From: Escherichia phage LHE287
DNA length: 64,000 bases
Sequence record: PP761450.1
Direction: 5' to 3' (one strand)
In this document: positions 2,601-62,121 of the stretch, piece by piece
How positions within the stretch are numbered: the first letter of the stretch is position 1
Layout: each line of letters begins with the position of its first letter
Made by a program: the position numbers and the translations under genes
Notes under the pieces: generated by a model
What the model was told of the DNA's origin: nothing
The model's input: only the letters and a program-made list of their open reading frames with translations
The model's database searches: none

Positions 2601-3211
2601 GGTAATAGAAGTCCATCATCCCGCTCCGTTGGGGCGGGTTTAATCTCCTTCCGCATCTGTTCCTTCAGCACCCTGACACGCTCAGCATGTCGGCGATCTT
2701 GCATCTCCATATCCCGTTTCTTTTTCGACTTCAGCTCAAACTGTTTACGAACATCCGGATCTTCACCTGGAACAAGATGCTCTTCGGTCCAGATAATGAA
2801 CTTCCAGTTCTTCTTGGCACACAGTTCGCGGGTGGCCTCCCACTTGGCAGAGTTGACCAACCAGGTTCGCATCGCATTGTTGAATGTCGACTCCTTCATG
2901 TTCGGAGTCTTCTTCGGCTGCTTGATCTGGTCTTTGGGCTTGATCTCAATGAGGGTGACCTGTAGTTCCTCTTGCCCTTCACGGCGCGTCCAGACCTTGA
3001 GGTCCATGAAGTAACGATGGGTGCGCCCGTCGACTGGGGAAATGTAAGGGATTACGGTCTCCTCACTAGACCACTTCACTATCGCGGAGTTCATATCACA
3101 GAACTTGAAAGCCACCAACTCCAGCGAAGAGCGGAAGATGATGTTATTCACATTCCCCTGATACTTCTTGGGATTAACTGGGGTGTACTTCCCCTGAAGA
3201 TAGTTGCTCAT
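2597..3211 (-). CDS. Hypothetical protein, possibly head completion nuclease-like (gp4 family)
   Basis: 204-aa ORF; N-terminal YxG..NIIFRSSLE and HRYFMDL motifs resemble phage head-completion nuclease proteins; function uncertain. Confidence 0.5.
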   Translation of the reverse strand: MSNYLQGKYTPVNPKKYQGNVNNIIFRSSLELVAFKFCDMNSAIVKWSSEETVIPYISPVDGRTHRYFMDLKVWTRREGQEELQVTLIEIKPKDQIKQPKKTPNMKESTFNNAMRTWLVNSAKWEATRELCAKKNWKFIIWTEEHLVPGEDPDVRKQFELKSKKKRDMEMQDRRHAERVRVLKEQMRKEIKPAPTERDDGLLLP

Positions 3212-3261
3212 AATCTAGTCCTAAATAGCCATAACACTCTATCTATTTAAGGGCTGAGACC

Positions 3262-4230
3262 ATGGCCGACTTCAAGAAGACAATCGATAAGATCAAGGTT
3301 CTGAACACGAAGGGATTGTCCCAGGCTCAGAAGCAATTGTCTTATCCCCTGGACGTCACTGGGGGTAAGACCTTGGGACACTATGTCCTATTCAACATCA
3401 ACCGTATCTCCGGTTCATCTTATGGCAACACGGCTACTCAGACTATCGAGAACCCAATACAGAACCCTCTGGGGAATACTCCTGTGGTCTATGGGTCCAA
3501 GTCTGGTTCCATCACCAAATATGCATGGGCGCGCCACGTTCGTTCAAACGAGTCTATCGTACTTTGTATGCCCGAGTCCATTACAACCAACTATGGTGTT
3601 GGCTGGAACGGTAGCGAGCTGGGGTTGGCTGGTATGGGGGCACAGTTCCTTTCCCGCGCCGCCCAAGACATGACTCAGTTTAAACTGGGTGATGCGCTCA
3701 ACGTCGGGAAGGAGATGGGGCGATTCGCTGCCACCAAGGCTATCCAATCTGCGTCGGAGGCTATTCCATTCCTGCCGAGCATTAACGCCCATGACACCCT
3801 TGAGTTGTTCACAGGCACCATGACCAACCCATATGTGGAGATGATCTTCCAGGGTGTTCGCAACCGTGAGATTCCATTTACATTCAAATTCACGCCGCGA
3901 TCTCAGAAGGAAGCCAAGATGGTCCGTGAGATCATCCGCATGTTCAAGATGCACATGTACCCAGAGTACAAGTACAACAAGAATTCCAGCGCGTTTTACT
4001 TGCATCCTTCAACATTCGACATTACGTTCATGGTCAATGGGGAGCGTAACCAGTGGCTGCACCGCATCTCCACTTGTGTGCTTTCCAACATGTTCGTCAA
4101 CGAGACGCCGGACAGTTCATATGCGGTTCACAAAGATGATGGTATCGTGTCCACGCAGGTTGACATGACCTTCATCGAACTGGAGCCTCTGCATAAAGGG
4201 CGCTTTGAAACCGAAGGCGATAGCTTCTAA
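3262..4230 (+). CDS. Virion structural protein, probably baseplate/tail-tube junction (gp48/gp54-like)
   Basis: 322-aa ORF heading a co-directional block that ends in a tape-measure-like gene; size matches T4 gp54; no enzymatic motifs. Confidence 0.5.
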   Translation: MADFKKTIDKIKVLNTKGLSQAQKQLSYPLDVTGGKTLGHYVLFNINRISGSSYGNTATQTIENPIQNPLGNTPVVYGSKSGSITKYAWARHVRSNESIVLCMPESITTNYGVGWNGSELGLAGMGAQFLSRAAQDMTQFKLGDALNVGKEMGRFAATKAIQSASEAIPFLPSINAHDTLELFTGTMTNPYVEMIFQGVRNREIPFTFKFTPRSQKEAKMVREIIRMFKMHMYPEYKYNKNSSAFYLHPSTFDITFMVNGERNQWLHRISTCVLSNMFVNETPDSSYAVHKDDGIVSTQVDMTFIELEPLHKGRFETEGDSF

Positions 4231-4241
4231 GAGAGGATGCC

Positions 4242-29280: not shown

Positions 29281-30891
29281 ATGTTAGACAATATGAGATG
29301 GTTTTACGGCACCGTTGAAGATGTCAACGATCCAGACCAAAATGGGCGAGTTGCTGTTCGCATATATGGCGTACACACCGACGATCCCGTCCTCCTGCCT
29401 ACGGACAAACTCCCATGGGCGAAGGTACTGATGCCTGCTTCTAACGCCTCCTCTGCTGGTTTAGGTTGGTCTCCAACGGGCATCATTCCTGGTACTGAGG
29501 TTATGGGGTTCGCCCTTGACGAAGCATACCAGAATTTACGCATCACCTGGACTTGGACTGGTTCAAGTCCTACTGATGGTGCCGACACAAACCCACTGGC
29601 TCTCGGGCAGGTCGTTCAATCTGTAGAACGTCAGGCGTACAACGCCGTCACTGACGTTCCTGTGAAACAAGAAGACGAACCACAACCAGATCCACAACCA
29701 CCTGTTGGTGGGTATGATCCAGAGAAGTGGATGACAATCGCTCGTGGCGAATTAGGTATCAAGGAGTATGCCGGAAAGTTCAACAACAACCCGCGCATTA
29801 TAGAATATCACAAGACAACCTCCCTTGGTGCTTCTGAAGATGAAGTGTCGTGGTGTGCGGCGTTCGTGGGTTGGGTTATGATACAGGCTGGATACACGTC
29901 TACACGCTCCGCTCTTGCCCGATCTTACCTTACATGGGGCACTCCACTGTCAGCACCACAATATGGCGCTATCGTAGTCTTCCGGCGTGGTAACAACCCT
30001 ACATTTGGACACGTAGCGTTTGTGCAGAAGTTCGATGCAAACTATGTCTGGTGTATTGGTGGCAACCAATCCGATTCAGTGAAGGTCAGTCGTTTCAGAC
30101 GTTCTTCGGTCTTGGGATATCGTTGGCCTGGTCCTGCTAACACAGCCACAGCCGCGCCTGCGCAGCAGAATGGTAAATGGTCAGAACCTATCCCAGATCG
30201 TACTCCAAAGGAACAACCGACTCCGGCTCCTACTGGGCGAGTACAGGATATTGACAACACTGGAGAAACCATGGTTCCGGCTGCGGGTGGCTCCAAATAC
30301 CCGTACAATAACGTCATGGTGTCCCGAGCTGGGCATATTATGGAAGTGGATGACACCCCTGGTGGTGAACGTCTTCACTGGATGCATAAGTCTGGGTCTT
30401 ACAAGCAAATGTTGCCGGATGGTGATGTGGTCAACAAGTCCGTCAAAGACCACTATGACCTGACGATGTTCAACAAGCGTTATTATGTCGGCGGGGACCA
30501 CAACCTGACGGTCAAAGGAACTGAAGTTCAGCGCAAGACAGGTGAGGTCTATCATTTGCATTCCAACAACTACTCAAATGTGGTTGCGGGCACAGCGCTG
30601 ATGAAATTCAGTGACCTAGCGGAAATGCAAGCGCAGAATATTCTGCGCATTATCTGCGAGACTCTGGAGGTCGGCGGGACATTGAAGGTTCCTAAGATTC
30701 TAACGACTGAGATCATCGCTGACAAACTGACTGTCGCTCAGACGATCAATGGTAACATCATATATGCCGAAGGTGCTGGTCGCGCTTCTTCTCTGTCAGG
30801 TGCAACCCCTGCATCCCCTACGGGTCCGGGTGAGATTGACATCAAGGCAGAATTAAAAGACAATGGTGGTAATTTCGGCACCAAAGAGTAA
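29281..30891 (+). CDS. Baseplate central spike (gp5-like) with CHAP-like peptidase domain and C-terminal beta-helix region
   Basis: N-terminus WFYGTVEDVNDPDQNGRVAVRIYGVHT resembles the gp5 OB-fold domain; central Cys/His region (VSWCAAFVGW...PTFGHVAFV) typical of CHAP-like peptidases. Confidence 0.75.
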   Translation: MLDNMRWFYGTVEDVNDPDQNGRVAVRIYGVHTDDPVLLPTDKLPWAKVLMPASNASSAGLGWSPTGIIPGTEVMGFALDEAYQNLRITWTWTGSSPTDGADTNPLALGQVVQSVERQAYNAVTDVPVKQEDEPQPDPQPPVGGYDPEKWMTIARGELGIKEYAGKFNNNPRIIEYHKTTSLGASEDEVSWCAAFVGWVMIQAGYTSTRSALARSYLTWGTPLSAPQYGAIVVFRRGNNPTFGHVAFVQKFDANYVWCIGGNQSDSVKVSRFRRSSVLGYRWPGPANTATAAPAQQNGKWSEPIPDRTPKEQPTPAPTGRVQDIDNTGETMVPAAGGSKYPYNNVMVSRAGHIMEVDDTPGGERLHWMHKSGSYKQMLPDGDVVNKSVKDHYDLTMFNKRYYVGGDHNLTVKGTEVQRKTGEVYHLHSNNYSNVVAGTALMKFSDLAEMQAQNILRIICETLEVGGTLKVPKILTTEIIADKLTVAQTINGNIIYAEGAGRASSLSGATPASPTGPGEIDIKAELKDNGGNFGTKE

Positions 30892-36718: not shown

Positions 36719-37531
36719 TTAACTGAAACTCTTGTATGCTGCTGCGAGCTTCTTGTCGTACTGGTTCTTGGCATACGCCGGACCATTATAGCGCCGTGCA
36801 AATTCAGACCAGTTCTTGTCCTTCAGAGCCTGCCAGAGCTTGGCGTCAGCCTTGATGAACTTCACGAATGCCATCAAATGAGCACGTTCTCCTGTCAGGA
36901 AGTCGTTGAACATCTCCTTGGCGTTGGCATATCCACAGACCTGGCAGTTGAATCCCATGATCTGGAAGAGACCGTAAGAGGCGCTCTCGTACGCACAATC
37001 CTCATCGATGTTGATGGCCGCATGAAGTCGATCCAACTCCGCGTCGCCTCCCGTGTACCCGCCTGCGGAAGGACTGACCAACGTCGGGTACATATGTCCC
37101 ATGGCATTCGCCCGAGCCTGTCCGAACTTCGCCATCAGCTTCTTATACATGATGTGGCGCTCAAATAATGTCTTGATCTTACCTGACTTGGTGAAGCCCG
37201 TACCGCGCGACTCAACCTGATTCACCGCCTTGACAGAGGCAAGGTCAACACCCAGATCATTAGCAGCATCAATCAGGTCTGACTCAGTTAGATGATCCTG
37301 ATGGGCGTCTCCGGCGTTGCGAATAGCATAGGAGGTCTTTGGACCTACGATACCATCAATGACAAGCCCCGCACCCGCCTGAACAGTCTTGACGGCGTTC
37401 TCTGTTGCCTTGCCAAAGATACCATCAGCGACGAGGGTGAAGCCGATTTTGTTGAGGCTATTCTGAAGTGCCTTCACTTCAGTGCCACGGTTGCCAAGTT
37501 TTAGAATGGCCATAAGAAAATACCTCCACAA
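36719..37531 (-). CDS. Endolysin: N-terminal peptidoglycan-binding domain plus C-terminal muramidase-type domain
   Basis: N-terminal PG_binding_1-like repeats (GTEVKALQNSLNKIGF...DGIFG); C-terminal block with GLFQIMGFN typical of phage N-acetylmuramidase endolysins. Confidence 0.75.
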   Translation of the reverse strand: MWRYFLMAILKLGNRGTEVKALQNSLNKIGFTLVADGIFGKATENAVKTVQAGAGLVIDGIVGPKTSYAIRNAGDAHQDHLTESDLIDAANDLGVDLASVKAVNQVESRGTGFTKSGKIKTLFERHIMYKKLMAKFGQARANAMGHMYPTLVSPSAGGYTGGDAELDRLHAAINIDEDCAYESASYGLFQIMGFNCQVCGYANAKEMFNDFLTGERAHLMAFVKFIKADAKLWQALKDKNWSEFARRYNGPAYAKNQYDKKLAAAYKSFS

Positions 37532-54063: not shown

Positions 54064-54342
54064 TTACTTGCCGTTGGCAGCGTTCTTCAGACCTTCGCCC
54101 ACTTTGAATTTCACAACGTTTTTCGCCGCGATCTGAATGGTCTGGCCGTTCAGAGGGTTGCGACCTTCACGCGCTTCTTGGTGTTTAACTTCGAACGCAC
54201 CGAAGCCAACCAGCTGTACAGATGCGCCTGCAGCAACTGCAGTTTTAACACCGTCGATAAAGGATGCCACTACTTTCTCCGCTTCGCCTTTGGTGATATT
54301 CTGGGTCGAAGCAATGTGGGCAACAAATTCAGTACGATTCAT
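54064..54342 (-). CDS. HU/IHF-family DNA-binding protein
   Basis: 92 aa; HU fold signature (GFGAFEV...REGRNPLNGQTIQIAAKNVVKFKVG). Confidence 0.85.
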   Translation of the reverse strand: MNRTEFVAHIASTQNITKGEAEKVVASFIDGVKTAVAAGASVQLVGFGAFEVKHQEAREGRNPLNGQTIQIAAKNVVKFKVGEGLKNAANGK

Positions 54343-54432: not shown

Positions 54433-54717
54433 TTATTGGGTGTTTCCTTTAGAGATGAATGATTCCATGTCTGTCCGGGAAATAATCGTTTCTACACGAT
54501 CTTCATCGATCAACATTTCGTTCAGAAGATCGTACCCCAGGACTTGTACATCACGCACACCACAAGATCGTTTGTTCAGTTCTGCCTCAACATTGAGAAC
54601 CCGCTGAACCGTCAGGCCACCAGAGGAGAACGGTACTGGATAGAAAGCAGAACACACTTGCGTGCTCCCATTTACGCTGTAACGAACCAGCAAGACATCA
54701 CACCATACACCAGCCAT
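54433..54717 (-). CDS. Hypothetical protein
   Basis: 94-aa ORF. Confidence 0.4.
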   Translation of the reverse strand: MAGVWCDVLLVRYSVNGSTQVCSAFYPVPFSSGGLTVQRVLNVEAELNKRSCGVRDVQVLGYDLLNEMLIDEDRVETIISRTDMESFISKGNTQ

Positions 54718-54718
54718 A

Positions 54719-55381
54719 TTACACCTCCACCGCGTGAGACTTCAGGAGTTCATCAATCTCTTTCTGTCCCATGTATGAGAACGGGGTGCGCTGGTAGAAC
54801 GCCCAGAGTACTAACTGGACAACAGCACGGGAACGGGTTTCGGCCGTCATCACCAGGCCACTGAAATGAGGAGACTCAGCTGTCCATTGTATCTCTTCGC
54901 CCAGGTCTTGATTACAGGTCACCGAGATGCGGAACTTGTTGCACAGATTGTCGACTTCTTTGTACGCATCGGTAGACACACGAAGTTGTTCCGCATGCGC
55001 CCACGGAGTTGTGACGATTCTTTCACCCATCACTTTATCAGAGATAAACCAATCAATACATTCGGTAAACTCACTAAAATGGTCGATACGATAAATGCAG
55101 TCTCCCCCTTCCATAGAACGCATGGCATGATAGCGAGCGTCGATTTCGTTGTTGTGCATCGCGTTGAAGTCGATGAACACGCGACGCGCCAGCACAACAT
55201 CTTCTGGTTGAAGTGCCAAGAAATCGTTCAGGCGGCTATAATGGAGGATATTGGAACCGTCGTGGCCACGTGTGCAATATGCGTAATAGCTACCGATACG
55301 GGCGTGGGCAATATAAGACAACGGGGCGAAGAATAATCCGTCAGGATCAGGACCGACGATAATAGAATAAAGTTTTTCCAT
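54719..55381 (-). CDS. Hypothetical protein (220 aa)
   Basis: ATG at 55381 in the recurring CTATATCATG context; track start (55396) is TTG. Confidence 0.5.
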   Translation of the reverse strand: MEKLYSIIVGPDPDGLFFAPLSYIAHARIGSYYAYCTRGHDGSNILHYSRLNDFLALQPEDVVLARRVFIDFNAMHNNEIDARYHAMRSMEGGDCIYRIDHFSEFTECIDWFISDKVMGERIVTTPWAHAEQLRVSTDAYKEVDNLCNKFRISVTCNQDLGEEIQWTAESPHFSGLVMTAETRSRAVVQLVLWAFYQRTPFSYMGQKEIDELLKSHAVEV

Positions 55382-55437
55382 GATATAGTCACTCAAATGA
55401 AAGGGCAGCTTTATGATAAGCCGCCCGAGGTTATTGA

Positions 55438-56292
55438 TTATTGGAAATCGCCAACATACATGTTCAGCTTGTCGTCCCAGTTCAGAACGACACGGATCGT
55501 TCCGGTATCTTCTGGGAAGGTCAGTCTGTCACACATGGCGCGATTAACATAAGTCCCGCTCTGGTTGACGTTGTAGTCCTTGCCTTGCATGATACCAAAA
55601 CGCTTGAAGTCGCGAGTGACCATCATGTTCAGAGTTGTCCAAGGGATTGCATCGCGCAGGGCTTTGCACAGGATGATCTTACCATCCGACCTGAACGACA
55701 CAAACAGCTCGTTGGCGATACGACGGCGAGTAGGCGGTTCAAGTTCACGCAGGGAAATGAATTGTGAATTCTTTACCTTTTCTGCCAGCGTCTGTACTTC
55801 TGCTGGATCCGGCTTGAACGACTCCACTGAAGAGTCAGACTTCATCACAACGTCACCCTTGCGCTTCTCAACCAATTGCTCCACAGCCTTTTGACTGTAT
55901 TTGGACTTAGGAACAACCGCTGGCTTGATGACAGGGCTTGCATCTGGTTTCGCCTTTGGGGTACTCCGAGCCGCACGCAGCTTTTCCTGGGCTTCCAGAA
56001 TGCGCTCTTGACGAGAAAGCGGAGCCTTTGGGGTGATCTTCGTACTGAAGTCAGAAACGCCGACCCAGTCACCCTGGTCATTACGCTTGGCGACCAGAGT
56101 CAGTTTGTGGATGATACCCTGAAGTTTGCTCTCACGTAAGTTGTCGGCATACCAGAACTTCGCGCCCATCTCGAACTTCTCGGCGAAGATCACGCGAGCG
56201 TCTTCGTGTACCAACATAACTTTGGCTGCGTTGGGGGCAAAAGCCTTATTCTTTTCGATAATCGCCGCAGCGATTGTTTTGGTCAGGAGCAT
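55438..56292 (-). CDS. Hypothetical protein (284 aa) with Lys/Pro-rich linker
   Basis: ATG at 56292; track start (56376) is TTG and overlaps the upstream lipoprotein gene. Confidence 0.5.
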   Translation of the reverse strand: MLLTKTIAAAIIEKNKAFAPNAAKVMLVHEDARVIFAEKFEMGAKFWYADNLRESKLQGIIHKLTLVAKRNDQGDWVGVSDFSTKITPKAPLSRQERILEAQEKLRAARSTPKAKPDASPVIKPAVVPKSKYSQKAVEQLVEKRKGDVVMKSDSSVESFKPDPAEVQTLAEKVKNSQFISLRELEPPTRRRIANELFVSFRSDGKIILCKALRDAIPWTTLNMMVTRDFKRFGIMQGKDYNVNQSGTYVNRAMCDRLTFPEDTGTIRVVLNWDDKLNMYVGDFQ

Positions 56293-56332: not shown

Positions 56333-56659
56333 TTAACCCGAAACTTTATTTTGAAATCCGACAAAGTCCTGGGCAATCCCCCGGCAATACATCAGGTCTT
56401 TCTTCGTTTGTGGACTGTTATCAGCCGCAGTCAGCATCATGGGAAGATCCAGCGCATTCTCTATCTGATCAACACTGAACAGATCAAGGCGCTTCAGCTC
56501 TCCCTCGAAGTCAGACAGTAGGATAGATGTGTCTTTGTCATCTGGGTGGAACTGCTGATACGTCTCCATCCATGCCACACATGTGTTCAGTTTGGACGGT
56601 GGTGCGGCGTTTACACACCCGGCTATCAGTACCAACAAGAGCAGGATTTTACATTTCAT
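56333..56659 (-). CDS. Predicted lipoprotein
   Basis: Signal peptide with lipobox LIAGC (MKCKILLLLVLIAGC). Confidence 0.55.
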   Translation of the reverse strand: MKCKILLLLVLIAGCVNAAPPSKLNTCVAWMETYQQFHPDDKDTSILLSDFEGELKRLDLFSVDQIENALDLPMMLTAADNSPQTKKDLMYCRGIAQDFVGFQNKVSG

Positions 56660-57345
56660 CACTCGTTCTCCTTCATCATATTGTCACAGTCAACACGAGT
56701 CTGCTGGAGTTCGCGCGACATGCGAGGATCATCAAGGTTCACGCTCAGATTCGTGGCCAGGTCTTTCAGACCGTTCTGAACCCTGTCTTCAAAGTAATAA
56801 TCGTTCTCAACCAGCCAGGCTCTGAGACCAAGAGCGCGGGTGCGCCATTCCTTCTTCAGGATGCGATCAGAGGTCTGCGTGGCGCTGTATTCGAATACTT
56901 TGACGCACTGGTTGCCATCGTTGATGAGGTTCAGGTGACGGCGGCCTATCTGCACACCCTTCTGTAATGCCGGAGAAGGGAGCGAACGGCACTGTCTTAC
57001 GGTCATTCGGCCTTGGGTGCCCATACGCCCAGTCATGATCAAATCGCCAGCCTCCATGCCTCCACGGTTAAATTCGTCGTCATTGAGGTAGCCTTTGAGG
57101 TTATAGGCTCCCTGTTTGTAACGGTTGAACTCAATTCCGGCATTGACGACAGCGGTGGAGACGTTGCCTGTGTTCCAGAGTTCAGCGAAGTTCTCTATGG
57201 AACCAGACTTGTCGATGGCAACCGCCTGGGAGAACCCAGCACAATAGGAAAGGTCGGACCACAGTTTATCACCTGTGGAGTTCAGCTTGGCAGCGGCGGG
57301 TAATGCCAGACCAGCCAGCACAACCCCGAGGATTAAACGTTTCAT
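56659..57345 (-). CDS. Secreted protein of unknown function
   Basis: ATG at 57345 with AAGGAG RBS; signal peptide MKRLILGVVLAGLALPAAA; track start (57510) overlaps the ParB-like gene. Confidence 0.55.
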   Translation of the reverse strand: MKRLILGVVLAGLALPAAAKLNSTGDKLWSDLSYCAGFSQAVAIDKSGSIENFAELWNTGNVSTAVVNAGIEFNRYKQGAYNLKGYLNDDEFNRGGMEAGDLIMTGRMGTQGRMTVRQCRSLPSPALQKGVQIGRRHLNLINDGNQCVKVFEYSATQTSDRILKKEWRTRALGLRAWLVENDYYFEDRVQNGLKDLATNLSVNLDDPRMSRELQQTRVDCDNMMKENE

Positions 57346-57424
57346 GGCGATTCTCCTTATTTCATTGGATGAAATGATAGGCGGCTCACCATGATGAGTA
57401 AAGGGATTCAATAAACTATCGTAT

Positions 57425-57874
57425 TCAGAAACGGGTATCGCTGACCGTTCTGTATCGCACACCCTGAAACTGTTTAGCGAGTTTAACAAATTCCATCGCT
57501 GGCAAATCAACTTTGTAGACCTTCATGCGCTGTTTGCCGTCCATGTTCAACGCAGCGACAAATCGGTGAGAACCGTCAACAACGTAATTGTCAGAAGATA
57601 CCCAAACTCGACCCATAGGTTTCTTATTTCTGATCTGCTTCATAATCTTCCAGACCTTCATTTTATTGATTTCGTTCTGGGTAAGACGAAGCGTTTTGAT
57701 GGGCACTTGCGCAGCATCTATGGACACGCCGTTGTCTTCAAGATATTTGTGAAAATCTTCTTGTTTGTCGGCATCGATTTGCGGCATAGAAGAACGAGAA
57801 AGCCCGAGGTTCCCAACAGGAATCCTCAGGCCGTTAATGATGTTCAACCAGTCAATAAAAGATGTAAGGAACAT
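57425..57874 (-). CDS. ParB N-terminal-domain (ParB/Srx-like nuclease) protein
   Basis: VVDGSHRFVAA resembles the DGxHR motif of ParB-like nuclease domains; GAGGTG RBS. Confidence 0.5.
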   Translation of the reverse strand: MFLTSFIDWLNIINGLRIPVGNLGLSRSSMPQIDADKQEDFHKYLEDNGVSIDAAQVPIKTLRLTQNEINKMKVWKIMKQIRNKKPMGRVWVSSDNYVVDGSHRFVAALNMDGKQRMKVYKVDLPAMEFVKLAKQFQGVRYRTVSDTRF

Positions 57875-57906
57875 GACACACCTCGGGATATAGGGTTATC
57901 CCTTAG

Positions 57907-58107
57907 TTAGCGCATCCATCGATCCTTTCTCTCTTTCTCCTTGCGTTCGCGACGTTTCTGGTCGGATCGGAATAACCAATAGAAGAAGTTCCCACCCAAG
58001 ATGAAAACCACCGCGATTATTACTAGGACACCCTTCACAATTTCCCAAACCAATTCTTTATCCAAATTATACCTCTTCTTCTTCTTCTTCTTCAGGTCCA
58101 CCGTCAA
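57907..58107 (-). CDS. Possible small membrane protein
   Basis: ORF with one TM helix; non-ATG start; N-terminal Lys run comes from the (GAA)n repeat in another frame. Confidence 0.25.
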   Translation of the reverse strand: MTVDLKKKKKKRYNLDKELVWEIVKGVLVIIAVVFILGGNFFYWLFRSDQKRRERKEKERKDRWMR

Positions 58108-58363
58108 TCAGGATACGAGCGGCGTCGAAAGTTTCCCCGCCCGTGTTCAGCAGCTTGGTCAGATCGTCAAGATATCGGACCGTGCCAAGATCAGATGACC
58201 GCGATATGAACTCCAGCATACCATACAACGCTGTTTGGAATCGGCTGTTATCGATATCGTTCTTTATTACCATCAGGCGCAAGATGTTCTCTGACTGAGT
58301 ATGGCCAACACACGCCTTGTCTCTGATCATCTCCTTGATAGAACTTCTCTCTGATGGTGTCAT
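58067..58363 (-). CDS. Hypothetical protein with C-terminal poly-Glu tail
   Basis: ATG start overlapping the upstream gene stop (ATGA); ends in seven Glu from a (GAA)n repeat. Confidence 0.5.
   Translation of the reverse strand: MTPSERSSIKEMIRDKACVGHTQSENILRLMVIKNDIDNSRFQTALYGMLEFISRSSDLGTVRYLDDLTKLLNTGGETFDAARILIDGGPEEEEEEEV
58073..58093. repeat. Trinucleotide repeat (CTC + (TTC)x6 on plus strand; seven Glu codons on minus strand)
   Basis: ctcttcttcttcttcttcttc read directly. Confidence 0.8.
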
Positions 58364-58734
58364 AACGTACCCCCGACAGAGATCAAGAACTCTTCTTGCA
58401 TGGTCTTGACCGGGTGGTGGTTGCGGGTTTCGAACATGAAGCCCCAGCCACCGTCGGCGACGTTGCCAAAGGTCTTGACGCCAAAGGACTTCGTCCCGTT
58501 GGAGCAGGAATAGATGTCCAGGACGTATGGGCTACCCTGATTGTCGATCCCACGATTCACGTCGTCTGATACGCAGCGCTCAATCATCTTCCCGTTCTTA
58601 TACAGAACGAGGTCTTGGCCATACGCCTTGAAAGCATAAACACCGTTGGTAGACACTCCGGTGATGACAGGAGGGGCGGAAACAGCAGCAAAGGAAGCGC
58701 CCAGCAGGGCAACAGCGAGGATTAACTTTTTCAT
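58360..58734 (-). CDS. Secreted protein of unknown function
   Basis: ATG at 58734 in CTATATCATG context; signal peptide MKKLILAVALLGASFAAVSA. Confidence 0.55.
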   Translation of the reverse strand: MKKLILAVALLGASFAAVSAPPVITGVSTNGVYAFKAYGQDLVLYKNGKMIERCVSDDVNRGIDNQGSPYVLDIYSCSNGTKSFGVKTFGNVADGGWGFMFETRNHHPVKTMQEEFLISVGGTL

Positions 58735-58793
58735 GATATAGTCTCTTGGTTTCAAATAGACGGGGTAATCATACCCCGCCCAAAGTTATAGAA

Positions 58794-59033
58794 TTAACTG
58801 ATGTGCTTCAGAAGAGCGAAGAGGATCGCGGCCTTGGCCTTTACCTTTCCTACGATGCCTGTTTCGACATCAACTTCTTCAGCAACCCACTCTTTTCCCT
58901 TCTTGCTGATGATAACGTCACGACGCTGTGCGTAGACTTCTTTGGTCGCATACACACGGCGGAACCCTTTAGCGCGGAGCAATCCCCAATTGCGATCAAT
59001 TTCTACTGAGGTTTCTACCATTTTGTTCTTCAT
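58794..59033 (-). CDS. Hypothetical small early protein
   Basis: 79-aa ORF downstream of copy 1 of the duplicated promoter cassette. Confidence 0.5.
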   Translation of the reverse strand: MKNKMVETSVEIDRNWGLLRAKGFRRVYATKEVYAQRRDVIISKKGKEWVAEEVDVETGIVGKVKAKAAILFALLKHIS

Positions 59034-59083
59034 GATATAATCTTACCTTTCAACCCGGTGAACCCATCGTTCGCCAGTTATTG

Positions 59084-59137
59084 AATAATACGCATTTACC
59101 TTATAGAAGTAAACCCCTAAAAGTAAAAATCCCCAAC
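59084..59137. repeat. Copy 1 of a 54-bp direct repeat (early promoter plus start of terminator hairpin)
   Basis: Identical 54-mer aataatacgcatttaccttatagaagtaaacccctaaaagtaaaaatccccaac also at 59440-59493. Confidence 0.85.
59085..59113 (-). promoter_or_regulatory. Early sigma70-like promoter (TTTACT-N17-TATTAT), copy 1
   Basis: -35 TTTACT, 17-bp spacer, -10 TATTAT on the minus strand. Confidence 0.5.
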
Positions 59138-59148
59138 AAACGTTGGGG
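59131..59148 (-). terminator. Intrinsic terminator (copy 1)
   Basis: CCCCAAC / GTTGGGG stem followed by ATTTTTAC on the minus strand. Confidence 0.5.
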
Positions 59149-59166
59149 ATTTAATAAAAGTTATGC

Positions 59167-59391
59167 CTATTTAATTTCTCGGCTTGAATTTTCTAGTTCT
59201 AATTTTCTTATAGCGGAAATTCTGCCTTCATCAGTTGCGGGAAACTCCCAAACAGCACGACGCCCATTGTTGGTATCACAACTTGCCAGCCAGCAGAAAT
59301 TAGAGGGGTCCTTAAACAAGACCAACTTCGGATTTCCTAAATTGATGAGGTTAAACGGGGTGAGGTCAACAACACATGATATAGCAGACAT
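59167..59391 (-). CDS. Hypothetical small protein bracketed by duplicated promoter-terminator cassettes
   Basis: 74-aa ORF with ATG start and GAAGG RBS, promoter copy 2 upstream, terminator copy 1 downstream. Confidence 0.5.
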   Translation of the reverse strand: MSAISCVVDLTPFNLINLGNPKLVLFKDPSNFCWLASCDTNNGRRAVWEFPATDEGRISAIRKLELENSSREIK

Positions 59392-59439
59392 AACATATAC
59401 CTTCTTTCAATGAACGGGAACGCCCCGATCTATGAATTC

Positions 59440-59493
59440 AATAATACGCATTTACCTTATAGAAGTAAACCCCTAAAAGTAAAAATCCCCAAC
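59440..59493. repeat. Copy 2 of the 54-bp direct repeat
   Basis: Identical to 59084-59137. Confidence 0.85.
59441..59469 (-). promoter_or_regulatory. Early sigma70-like promoter, copy 2
   Basis: Same -35/-10 elements as copy 1. Confidence 0.5.
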
Positions 59494-59504
59494 GTTTGTT
59501 GGGG
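59487..59504 (-). terminator. Intrinsic terminator (copy 2) after the ACP-like gene
   Basis: CCCCAAC-GTTT-GTTGGGG hairpin then T-run on the minus strand. Confidence 0.5.
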
Positions 59505-59511
59505 ACTTCTG

Positions 59512-59835
59512 TTATTTGCGCAGGGCAACCACGAGTTCAGCGAGTTCACCCATGGTCGGGTCGTCGCCTTTACTACCTAGCCACCCGTCGTCGATTTCGA
59601 CCTGAAACTCTTCTTCGAGGTCCATTACAATTTCGATAGCGTCCAGTTCATCACCGCCGAGGTCTTTCTTGGTACGGAGGCCAGCCAGCTTGTCCAGGGC
59701 GTCCTCGTTCTGAGATGCCACGTCGTCCAGCAATTTGCGCTTGTCATCGTCACGCCACAGATCCATATTCAGATTGTCAGTGGCGTACTGAGCCAGATGA
59801 CGCATGACTTCAACATATGTTGGCTTACTGCTCAT
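59512..59835 (-). CDS. Acyl-carrier-protein-like protein lacking the phosphopantetheine-attachment serine
   Basis: DLGGDELDAIEIVMDLEEEFQVEIDD aligns to the ACP core [26 protein letters not shown] with Ser replaced by Glu; about 45-aa N-terminal extension. Confidence 0.6.
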   Translation of the reverse strand: MSSKPTYVEVMRHLAQYATDNLNMDLWRDDDKRKLLDDVASQNEDALDKLAGLRTKKDLGGDELDAIEIVMDLEEEFQVEIDDGWLGSKGDDPTMGELAELVVALRK

Positions 59836-59877: not shown

Positions 59878-62121
59878 TTAGATTTTGATTTCTTTCTCTG
59901 TCAGTTCGGCAGTGACCTTGTACTTCACGCCATCCACTTCAACTTCCATGGTGGACTCTTCCAGGTCGAGGTCGGTGAACCAGCCGTGGCCAGCAACGAT
60001 ACCATACACCACTTTAGACAGTGTCTTGTTCAGGGCACGGACTTCGGTGATGGCCGCCTTGGCAGCAGCGTCGATCCAGTTTTCGATCAGCTGTTTCTGT
60101 AAGGCTTCAGGCACGGCAGTGATCATAGGAGACTTCACGAATGCTTCGTACTCTTTCAGAGCATTGGCGATGAACAAGTCACCAGCATTGAGTTTCTTGT
60201 TCTCTGCGATCTTCTTCTGTACTGCCGCGATGCTCGGTAGTGAAGACGCCCCGGCGATCTTCACGTTCAGCTCACGGCTCATGTAGAAGTCGGTAGACTC
60301 TTTGGTCTCAGTCTTCGGTGAGAAGCCGTAATCGCGGATGCCGTAGGAGGACAGGAACTCGGCCGCCTCAGCGCCGTACTGTACTGCCAGGCCTTTGGCG
60401 TTACCCTTACCAACCAGGGCGTCTCGATAGAACTTCAGCACCTTCTGCTTGCCTTTCAGGGCTTCCAGACGGACATTATCCGCAAAGAACTGAGCAGCAC
60501 TGATGTTCTTGACCATGGCGCGGTTGACCAGCGGTACGCTTTCCAGGTTCAGGACAAACACTTCCGGGCCACCAAACACGTGGACGCCCATTTCGATCAG
60601 CTTCTGTACAACTTCGATATCAGCCTTGAACGGCAGAGTCTTCACGTTAATGATACCGTCTTTGACGATGGTGTAGTTGCGCCACTGGAAAGTATCCAGT
60701 TCTTCAGGCAGGCCAAACTTCTTCTGTGCGAATTCAGGCACAGCCACAGTACCGTGTTGAATTGTACGCACACTGATGTTCGGGCGCTCGGAGTTATAGA
60801 CCAAATCACTGATTGGCACAACACCCAGATCGTTGGTAGGTTCGAACGTCGGGTTCCACTCTTCGTGTTCTGCCAGCTTGAGAGCCAGGGCTTTACGCTC
60901 TTCTTTGGACTGAGCATTCGCGATCTGTTCTGCCAGCTTGTCTTCGGTGTCGTCGGTTTTCTGCACAGTACCGCGCCCGATACTCTTATAGGAGAACATC
61001 GGATGCTTGGTAGCAACAGGTACACCAGCTTCAGCCAGGTACGTCAGCACATCAACGACGGTGGTCGCATCTTCAGCCGGAACCAGGTCATAGTCAATAC
61101 CGTCAACGCCGCGCAGCTGGTCGTCAACAATCGCCTGAACCAGATCGTTCTTGATGTTGGAGTAGTCCTGCTTGGTGAAGCAGTTGCTGTACTGTTTGAT
61201 GAAGCGAACGTCGCCCGTCTTCTTCAGCGCAGCCCAAACCAGATCTGCGTCCATAGTGTGTACACCGTAGAACGCCAGCACGTATGCCGCCTGGATGTCC
61301 GTCAGGCTATCCATCTGGTCGATCATGTTAGGGTTTACAACCCACAGCTTGGTGACGCTCTCAGGGATGCTCACATAGCCGACCGGGTGAGAGTCATCGT
61401 CCTGCACCGCCAGTACTGTTGCCACACCGTTTTCGACGTAGATGGCATGGGTGTAGATGACTGGGACATCAACTTTCACCTTCGGCACTGATGACTTCAG
61501 CACGTTTTCCAGTTCGGTCTGGTATTCGGTCTGACCTTCGGCAAACACATGAGTCGCGCCAGAGCGCTCGGACATCAGAGCCAGCAGTTCGCGGTTACAG
61601 TGCCAGCCGTATTCGATGAAAGTAATGTTATCGAACGCAGAAGGCAAGGTTTCGGCGACGGCCAGGATTTCGTTTGAGCGCCAGCAGTTGTCATAACCAT
61701 CGGTCATGAATGCCAGGTTGTTGACGTAACCAGGTTTCTTCAGGTCACGCGCAGTATCCATCGCCAGTTTCAACGGCTCAACGAAGCCAGTACATCCGGA
61801 CGGTTGCAGGAAGCGATCGATCAGTTTGTTCAGCTCGCTCAGGTCAGACGCAGCACTAACCTGGCGGCCAGCGAACACAGTACCAAAGTCGCCTTTGGAG
61901 GAGAAATACAGAACGCTCACAGTGTCTTCCGGTTTCACCAGGGAAGGCAGGTTCTCCTTCAGATGCTTACGGACTTCAGGGAGCGCACGGTACATAGAGC
62001 CGGAAATGTCTACAACGATTACATGGTTGGACGGGGTAGCAGTCGCAACCGCATTCTTAAATTCTAATGATTCAATCATTGTTCTCTTCGCCTTGTGCGT
62101 AAGGGTTAAGTTCAGACTCAT
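59878..62121 (-). CDS. von Willebrand factor A (vWA/MIDAS) domain protein, large
   Basis: N-terminal HVIVVDISGSM (DxSxS MIDAS motif); about 600 aa of C-terminal sequence without recognisable motifs; the true start may be the internal ATG at 62079 (better RBS). Confidence 0.7.
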   Translation of the reverse strand: MSLNLTLTHKAKRTMIESLEFKNAVATATPSNHVIVVDISGSMYRALPEVRKHLKENLPSLVKPEDTVSVLYFSSKGDFGTVFAGRQVSAASDLSELNKLIDRFLQPSGCTGFVEPLKLAMDTARDLKKPGYVNNLAFMTDGYDNCWRSNEILAVAETLPSAFDNITFIEYGWHCNRELLALMSERSGATHVFAEGQTEYQTELENVLKSSVPKVKVDVPVIYTHAIYVENGVATVLAVQDDDSHPVGYVSIPESVTKLWVVNPNMIDQMDSLTDIQAAYVLAFYGVHTMDADLVWAALKKTGDVRFIKQYSNCFTKQDYSNIKNDLVQAIVDDQLRGVDGIDYDLVPAEDATTVVDVLTYLAEAGVPVATKHPMFSYKSIGRGTVQKTDDTEDKLAEQIANAQSKEERKALALKLAEHEEWNPTFEPTNDLGVVPISDLVYNSERPNISVRTIQHGTVAVPEFAQKKFGLPEELDTFQWRNYTIVKDGIINVKTLPFKADIEVVQKLIEMGVHVFGGPEVFVLNLESVPLVNRAMVKNISAAQFFADNVRLEALKGKQKVLKFYRDALVGKGNAKGLAVQYGAEAAEFLSSYGIRDYGFSPKTETKESTDFYMSRELNVKIAGASSLPSIAAVQKKIAENKKLNAGDLFIANALKEYEAFVKSPMITAVPEALQKQLIENWIDAAAKAAITEVRALNKTLSKVVYGIVAGHGWFTDLDLEESTMEVEVDGVKYKVTAELTEKEIKI

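Follow-up and report, generated by a model that had tools for sequence, protein, structure and literature searches.

In a 64,000-nt stretch of the genome of Escherichia phage LHE287 (PP761450.1; below, the window), two adjacent genes on the minus strand, here designated B (56659-57345) and A (56333-56659), were found to encode a universal, coupled and strongly constrained pair of predicted periplasmic proteins, the larger of which has a fold that could not be matched; the genes themselves were already known as hypotheticals in hundreds of genomes, and it is this characterization of the pair that is new. The 8.2 kb around them are 96-97% identical to the Escherichia phages vB_EcoM-ZQ1, AV101 and RPN242 and ~90% identical to SKML-39, Ag3 and Maynard, and the source was therefore assigned to the ViI-like myoviruses of the family Ackermannviridae. 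A part in the control of superinfection and/or lysis timing is the leading, still tentative, reading of what the pair does.

Gene B encodes a 228-amino-acid (aa) precursor with a predicted cut after A19 and a 209-aa mature protein with four invariant cysteines. Its N-terminus reads MKRLILGVVLAGLALPAAA↓K (arrows mark cleavage sites), with P16-A17-x-A19 invariant, and consists of a short n-region and an h-region of 12-16 residues ending in Pro. The (-3,-1) rule for small residues at the cleavage site is kept in 33/33 B homologs examined, down to 32% identity, including the variants PAAA↓K, PASA↓K, PAHA↓G, TSAWS↓E, FHASA↓A, STANA↓G and APVHA↓R. Hydrophobic segments are absent from the mature part (maximum 19-residue Kyte-Doolittle value 0.61), which hence has no transmembrane (TM) segment, and B is strongly predicted to be a soluble periplasmic protein with a cleavable Sec signal. 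An AlphaFold2 (AF2) model was calculated from an alignment to which three 32-35% identical relatives from an exhaustive search had been added; it reached a predicted local distance difference test score (pLDDT) of 83.8 and a predicted template modelling score (pTM) of 0.72, and comprises nine helices in a compact all-alpha domain preceded by a disordered signal peptide. A shallow alignment (18 sequences, 76-96% identity) gave a pLDDT of 38 only, and that model was discarded. When the fold was compared with all PDB chains using Foldseek, the best match had E=0.75, and a comparison with BFVD returned family members only. The exhaustive profile search for B, run over 1.84 billion representative proteins, returned ten matches, all from this phage group. 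B thus is a confidently modelled all-alpha, predicted periplasmic fold without known relative. A lysozyme, a transglycosylase, a colicin-type pore domain, a holin-T domain and an extended coiled coil were excluded as identities of B by the compact, unmatched fold.

Gene A encodes a 108-aa precursor with an acidic mature part (~90 aa, isoelectric point (pI) 4.4) that carries two invariant cysteines; its Shine-Dalgarno sequence is AAGGAG, and with 5.6% Pro the protein is not proline-rich. The N-terminus, MKCKILLLLVLIAG↓CVNA↓AP, contains LIAG↓C15, which fits the lipobox consensus [LVI][ASTVI][GAS]C and has Val at position +2 of the lipobox Cys; an ordinary A-x-A signal-peptidase I site (VNA↓A19) lies three residues downstream. 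A lipobox was seen in 6/36 full-length A cluster representatives and, in addition, in SKML-39, CAU_YEP3 and Maynard. All that bear it are ~90% or more identical to the window, corresponding by identity band to at most ~48 of 281 genomes, and one representative inside the lipobox subclade has LMAGS at that position. The remaining lineages have a plain signal peptide with an A-x-A end followed by xP (A18-x-P20, C27 and C92 are invariant), and plain signal peptides are likewise present in the divergent A proteins of L004 (a 156-kb metagenomic phage) and Erwinia phage Bue1, which are 32-34% identical. To judge from this distribution, the A family is ancestrally soluble and periplasmic, and one lineage has recently gained the lipid anchor by point mutation; in the sublineage of the window, A is probably tethered to the outer membrane via the predicted lipobox. 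The first-pass annotation, made from the letters of the window, had described A as a lipobox lipoprotein, which holds for the LIAG↓C of this phage and does not carry over to the other lineages with their plain signal peptides. The signal peptide of T4 Spackle, encoded at 2759-3052 of the T4 sequence L009, carries a lipobox-like LASC six residues ahead of its documented signal-peptidase I site (PAMA↓G), as LIAGC lies ahead of VNA↓A in A, and the mature Spackle protein is reported to be soluble from Gly23; caution is therefore due, and LIAGC was not taken as proof of lipidation. Paralogy of A and B was considered and rejected, the alignment of the two being confined to their signal peptides.

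The invariant cysteines in the mature parts of A (2), B (4) and the nearby secreted protein F (2; see below) fit an oxidizing periplasm and disulfide-bonded periplasmic proteins. In the window, the start codon of A shares one base with the stop codon of B (TGATG), so that A and B are very probably made in coupled amounts. The B stop/A start overlap is also present in L004 and Bue1 (ATGA), and by comparison of these sequences the coupling is conserved across the full depth of the family. When 50,697 phage records were searched by tblastn, A was found in 281 and B in 277 of them, as against 104 for F and 58 for the small membrane protein gene D. The phages with B and A infect Salmonella, Klebsiella, Escherichia, Dickeya, Serratia, Shigella, Erwinia, Enterobacter and Yersinia, and on this census B and A are core genes, universal in Ackermannviridae. 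The ratio of nonsynonymous to synonymous substitutions (dN/dS) against relatives was 0.03-0.10 for B and 0.05-0.12 for A, compared with 0.03-0.09 for the replicative helicase, ~0.25 for F and 0.10-0.20 for the downstream gene K. Purifying selection on B and A is as strong as on the replicative helicase. Universality together with strong constraint points to a target that is itself conserved, whether in the phage or in the enterobacterial envelope, and away from a host-specific receptor.

In selz_4t1 (OL964736), a mutant of the Ackermannviridae phage selz that is viable with a reduced genome, 134 kb are left of the 154.8 kb of the wild type (PMC9825161). Its A ends in ...MESAANGQ followed by the stop codon, so that the last ~22 residues including the invariant Cys92 are gone; at 2449-2830 of the mutant sequence L005, a deletion has fused the truncated A with sequence that precedes the helicase gene. 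Counterparts of K, of the genes L and M and of the HU-like gene are deleted, and B and C are intact. The phage can therefore be grown in the laboratory without an intact A, which speaks for a function needed only under certain conditions, though spanin defects are conditional as well.

The reading favoured for B-A, which was reached from architecture and context only and is put forward tentatively, is a periplasmic module for superinfection and/or lysis-timing control of the T4 Spackle/RI-like type. The two soluble, disulfide-bonded proteins very probably both reach the periplasm via Sec; there, A would act as a Spackle-like small acidic binder and B as its partner of novel fold. Plausible targets would be the peptidoglycan-cleaving CHAP domain in the gp5-like tail hub and whatever part of a holin faces the periplasm. 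The gp5-like baseplate hub (29281-30891, plus strand) comprises Gp5_OB and a CHAP peptidase/amidase and has no T4-type lysozyme domain. Elsewhere in the window, a 104-aa protein (25966-26280, minus strand; phrog_4696) has an N-terminal hydrophobic anchor and an ~80-aa periplasmic domain; this is the topology of T4 RI or a class III holin, and the protein is a candidate family holin or antiholin. T4-like lysis inhibition at high multiplicity of infection (MOI) has been described for CBA120, with no holin or antiholin known in the family (PMC3184105).

T4 Spackle (gp61.3) inhibits the gp5 tail lysozyme from the periplasm, acts in superinfection exclusion and keeps lysis inhibition from collapsing; it is an early gene product, made as a 97-aa precursor and cut to a 75-aa helical protein with a Cys29-Cys81 disulfide, and mutants altered at the C-terminus are viable but show lysis-inhibition collapse (PMC7677548). 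A resembles it in its N-terminal signal with a cleavage site, in the small size and acidity of the mature part (90 aa, pI 4.4 vs 75 aa, pI 4.6), in the position of the first mature Cys (9 in A, 7 in Spackle) and in the distance of 17 residues between the second Cys and the C-terminus. The two proteins belong to T4-related myoviruses with lysis inhibition, and for each of them the loss of the C-terminus is tolerated in viable phage. The transcription signals ahead of the pair bear on the same point. A promoter-like site of the sigma-70/T4-early type (57374-57402, minus strand; TTTACT-N17-TATCAT) lies upstream of B and has one mismatch to the T4/PST early consensus TTTACW-N17-TAYWAT. The 80-nt region upstream of B, both hexamers included, is almost invariant in Kuttervirus and Agtrevirus and unrecognizable in L004. 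The architecture of A, the early-type site, PeSL-type early promoter cassettes nearby (see below) and the lysis inhibition of CBA120 together suggest, by analogy, a Spackle-like role, and the truncated A of the viable selz_4t1 fits an accessory, conditionally useful function.

Several points weigh against this reading. With hhalign, A and Spackle were aligned over the first 6 residues of the signal peptide only, at a probability of 3.7%; the values were 0.3% for A and 1.3% for F against RI, and 0.06% for B against holin T. The A profile had no match at E<=10 among PDB sequences, Spackle entries included, and Pfam and NCBIfam gave no match; none of these comparisons showed homology to Spackle, RI or T or to families of the Imm type. 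The resemblance of A to Spackle is at most one of working principle, not of family, and the helical bundle assumed for A is an inference. The promoter consensus scan returned as many sites as expected by chance, so the site upstream of B counts as a consensus match only. Spackle works alone, with no coupled partner like B, and the need for a 209-aa partner is unexplained. The hub enzyme is of CHAP type here and of lysozyme type in T4, and the Spackle analogy is therefore not a literal one. Core status and helicase-like constraint, finally, would be no less expected of an essential function in lysis.

Among other T4 proteins considered, gp61.2, encoded next to sp, was rejected as a counterpart of B (no signal peptide; hhalign 0.06%), and RI and T were rejected as relatives of A, F and B on the hhalign values, a fold match for B being lacking as well. 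T4 RI is a periplasmic antiholin, and the parallel to RI/T lies in similar sizes (RI 97 aa and T 218 aa vs A 108 aa and B 228 aa) and in the secretion of small proteins by phages whose family has lysis inhibition at high MOI. It is set against the lack of profile similarity, against the structure of B, which has neither the cytoplasmic N-terminus nor the TM segment of T, and against the gene order of T4, in which rI and t are not adjacent.

Behind superinfection and lysis-timing control, the rival explanations were ranked in the order host takeover, non-canonical lysis, receptor masking and canonical spanin. The first of these, another periplasmic role in host takeover such as envelope stress signalling, inhibition of a DegP-type protease or protection of the sacculus over a long latency, for which no known phage system would be a model, is possible, if doubtful. 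It is in keeping with B having no fold relative and with the confinement of the B family to one phage family. In the divergent members, small membrane proteins and an SPFH/Band-7 lipoprotein follow directly after B-A (L004 7016-8028; Bue1 2794-4233), which suggests a larger envelope-directed set; the drawback of this reading is that it points to no particular target and is a residual class. The lipoproteins of L004 and Bue1 have the lipoboxes LLTG↓C and LLAG↓C, and no SPFH/Band-7 gene is present within the 64-kb window. Two genes further along, Bue1 has a phrog_1510 gene labelled 'superinfection exclusion'; this label was not accepted as a clue to B-A, as it belongs to phrog_1510, which is without counterpart in the window.

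A non-canonical lysis module, in which soluble (here perhaps tethered) periplasmic proteins would help to breach the outer membrane, or complete lysis in another way, other than by an Rz/Rz1-type complex, is considered unlikely. The family was listed as spanin-less and yet must pass the outer membrane, and spanins of other topologies were allowed for in the same survey (PMC6139136). The endolysin (36719-37513; PG_binding_1 and N-acetylmuramidase, no signal) has no adjacent holin or spanin, the lysis genes being scattered as in T4, and B-A is a universal, constrained, adjacent and coupled envelope pair in the i-then-o order. The lipobox, once gained, was kept in one sublineage, so that an A tethered to the outer membrane is tolerated at the least. 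Against such a module, both proteins lack a membrane anchor in the greater part of the family, so there is no inner-outer bridging; B is a compact globular bundle and A is not rich in proline; and the promoter-like site upstream of B is of the early type. The phage with the truncated A, selz_4t1, forms plaques and has good fitness (PMC9825161), which is a weak objection given that spanin defects are conditional.

Receptor masking or blocking by an outer-membrane lipoprotein with periplasmic helpers, in the style of T5 Llp or phi80/N15 Cor, is very unlikely. Lipoproteins are seldom encoded by phages, a number of the known ones act as receptor blockers, and A is a small predicted outer-membrane lipoprotein in this particular phage. 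The lipid anchor is, however, neither ancestral nor conserved in the family, and there is no similarity to the Llp or Cor families in Pfam or PHROGs. Ackermannviridae recognize variable O-antigens and capsules via exchangeable tailspikes, and B-A is conserved at low dN/dS across phages of at least nine host genera despite these differing polysaccharide receptors, which is unlike what is seen in host-specific blockers such as Llp or Cor. The patchy accessory genes F and D suit moron-type exclusion genes better than B-A does. It had been proposed at first that the exported proteins of this region act in superinfection exclusion or receptor masking; an exclusion-type role is still possible in view of the Spackle-like A and the early-type site, whereas masking has become improbable through the conservation across hosts.

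The competing label in databases is that of a spanin. A matches phrog_3843, 'Rz-like spanin', at E=1.3e-54, B is called 'i-spanin' or 'I-spanin' in several GenBank and UniRef records, and the labels for both are repeated in a comparative paper (PMC10892097, Table 5). B and A are, like lambda Rz/Rz1 and T4 PseT.3/PseT.2, adjacent overlapping genes for envelope proteins with the longer one first. Periplasmic Cys are common among spanins, and A of the window has a canonical lipobox with Val at +2, consistent with outer-membrane sorting. Two membrane anchors are the sole universal features of spanins, secondary structure and coiled-coil content varying widely, and an o-spanin has a lipobox [LVI][ASTVI][GAS]C with no Asp at +2 (PMC6139136). 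Such a lipobox is present in the window and its ~90%+ relatives and absent in 30/36 representatives, in L004 and in Bue1; the o-spanin anchor is thus missing in >80% of family genomes, all divergent ones included. An i-spanin has an uncleaved N-terminal TM segment in type II (N-in/C-out) orientation. B, with its conserved A-x-A site, its single short Pro-containing h-region and no other hydrophobic segment, is predicted not to be a type II inner-membrane protein. Neither the compact helical bundle of B nor the low proline content of A is spanin-like. Kongari et al. (2018) listed Vi01, Maynard, SFP10, SJ2, SJ3, CBA120, ECML-4, PhaxI, phiSboM-AG3 and Dickeya RC-2014 as spanin-less, for the reason that some of the genomes have a lipoprotein gene without a linked gene for a type II membrane protein (PMC6139136). 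Maynard_95, the A of that phage, was annotated by the Center for Phage Technology (Young laboratory) as 'conserved hypothetical lipoprotein' only. The position of B-A, ~20 kb from an endolysin gene that has no lysis neighbours, does not discriminate spanin status, because lysis genes are scattered as in T4-like phages. With both anchors failing at the family level, these phages filed as spanin-less by the Young-laboratory survey and the labels being automatic transfers with no experiment behind them, membership in the spanins was rejected, and a canonical i-spanin/o-spanin pair is the least probable of all readings.

The pair lies in a run of six minus-strand open reading frames, A to F. A crude signal-peptide/TM heuristic applied to ~91 likely genes returned ~8 exported or membrane proteins, 4 of them within this 6-gene block (hypergeometric P = 3.6e-4 per block, ~0.03 once corrected for scanning). 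The clustering noticed in the first-pass annotation is real, though modest, and its two signal-peptide proteins, B and F, are upheld by invariant Cys and by cleavage sites conserved throughout the homologs inspected. That annotation overlooked the heterogeneity of the cluster and the competing spanin label: the cluster is made up of the core pair B and A, the accessory F and D and the non-exported (cytoplasmic or virion) C and E. Scans of ten proteins against Pfam and NCBIfam gave nothing significant, and PDB sequence searches (profiles for A, B and F, the single sequence for C) gave chance-level matches only. The absence of recognizable domains claimed before thus stands for Pfam and NCBIfam and not for PHROGs, where all six proteins fall in families, that of A alone with a functional label. 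Against SKML-39, a mosaic boundary was observed between B (98.7% identical at the protein level, dS 0.37) and the adjoining C (84%, dS ~2.2); against Maynard, E is 67% identical, but D and F are 99-100% identical. The pattern of identities indicates that recombination gene by gene has shuffled this part of the genome. F and D are probably independent morons in a shuffling-prone, probably early-transcribed stretch, separate from a B-A machine.

F (58360-58734, minus strand) is an accessory gene for a 124-aa precursor with a mature part of ~104 aa and two invariant Cys. Its N-terminus is MKKLILAVALLGASFAAVSA↓PP, and the signal ...SFAAVSA↓PP as well as Cys54/Cys77 are kept in 10/10 representatives. 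Mature F is probably beta-rich; a Pfam or NCBIfam family or a PDB match was not found. In phage selz, an unrelated 168-aa gene is present at the position of F, and D is absent. E (58067-58363, minus strand; phrog_4458) encodes a 98-aa acidic protein with no export signal. The poly-Glu tail reported for it is present as C-terminal EEEEEEEV and is encoded by GAAGAAGAAGAAGAAGAGG (58063-58095, minus strand). D (57907-58065, minus strand; phrog_14464 'membrane protein') is accessory and encodes a 52-aa single-pass membrane protein with a short N-terminus, an ~21-aa TM segment and a very basic C-tail, for which an N-out/C-in topology is predicted. The small single-TM protein of the first-pass annotation is thus real. 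Its start is most likely TTG 58065, one base after the E stop, and the poly-Glu codons of E (GAAGAAGAAGAGG) most likely double as Shine-Dalgarno sequence for this start. D has the charged tail and single TM segment of a holin and a non-significant match to a Pfam holin family (E=0.069); it was rejected as the family holin because it is present in 58/~280 family genomes and unlinked to the endolysin.

C (57425-57874, minus strand) encodes 149 aa without signal peptide and lies outside the exported set. It matches phrog_2859 at E=2e-45 and, over residues 66-132, phrog_1033 'ParB-like partition protein' at E=0.0015, and it has a DGSHR motif; there was no Pfam or NCBIfam match at E<=1 and no PDB sequence match. 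Its earlier designation as a ParB-like nuclease gene is retained only in weak form: C may be ParB-N-terminal/sulfiredoxin-like. Sajous1 gp192, the counterpart of C by gene order, was detected in purified virions (PMC10892097). K (55438-56292, minus strand; phrog_3828) encodes 284 aa with no export signal and is a conserved gene of the family; its syntenic counterpart in Bue1 is 32% identical. It begins 40 nt downstream of A with no terminator between, so that it is probably co-transcribed with B-A. A terminator-like hairpin with a 9-bp stem, 6 GC pairs and a T-rich tail follows K (55403-55426, minus strand), which makes B-A-K the likely transcription unit.

In transcription order, the surroundings begin with a vWFA protein (59878-62121) and an acyl carrier protein (59512-59835), followed by H (59167-59391, minus strand) and by G (58794-59033, minus strand), which lies between H and F; beyond K come L (54719-55381, minus strand), M (54433-54717), an HU-like protein (54064-54342) and the replicative helicase. 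Two directly repeated copies of a 73-nt sequence flank H (59080-59152 and 59436-59508, minus strand); they are 92% identical, with the hairpin loop inverted between copies; each copy comprises a hairpin terminator and TTTACT-N17-TATTAT. PeSLs are gene-shuffling cassettes of T4-type phages in which a terminator is combined with an early promoter, with the T4/PST consensus TTTACW-N17-TAYWAT (PMC4122927), and the 73-nt repeats match the published PeSL definition and this consensus. H is absent from SKML-39 and Maynard, and seems to have entered this Ackermannviridae genome by a PeSL-mediated cassette insertion. These features, consensus matches only, suggest that the B-A region is early-transcribed and prone to shuffling. 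A usable late-promoter consensus was not obtained (TATAAATA is present upstream of the tail-tube gene only), and no infection transcriptome of an Ackermannviridae phage was found in the literature. The spacers right before the ATG of F (58735-58745), G (59034-59043) and L (55382-55392; all minus strand) read ACTATATC or ATTATATC, and CCTATATCC is present upstream of C; a preferred translation-initiation context or a promoter remnant are candidate meanings.

Phages of the Ackermannviridae (ViI, CBA120, Kuttervirus, Agtrevirus) find wide use in biocontrol and therapy. For their lysis, the endolysin is the sole identified component, and their T4-like lysis inhibition is unexplained. In this genomic region, B-A is the only universal secreted pair, and it is called a spanin, without evidence, in hundreds of records; showing that the label does not fit its own definition stops a wrong 'lysis cassette' from spreading. 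Two small genes are thereby pinpointed that may bear on the entry of competitors and on the timing or completion of lysis. It is unlikely, though conceivable, that B-A is the missing envelope-lysis or lysis-control device of the 'spanin-less' Ackermannviridae, a soluble two-protein periplasmic system of novel fold. If this is true, the pair would disrupt the outer membrane, or prime it, with no span across the periplasm, or would serve as the periplasmic sensor for the T4-like lysis inhibition of the family, by a mechanism distinct from those of Rz/Rz1, u-spanins, disruptins and RI/T.

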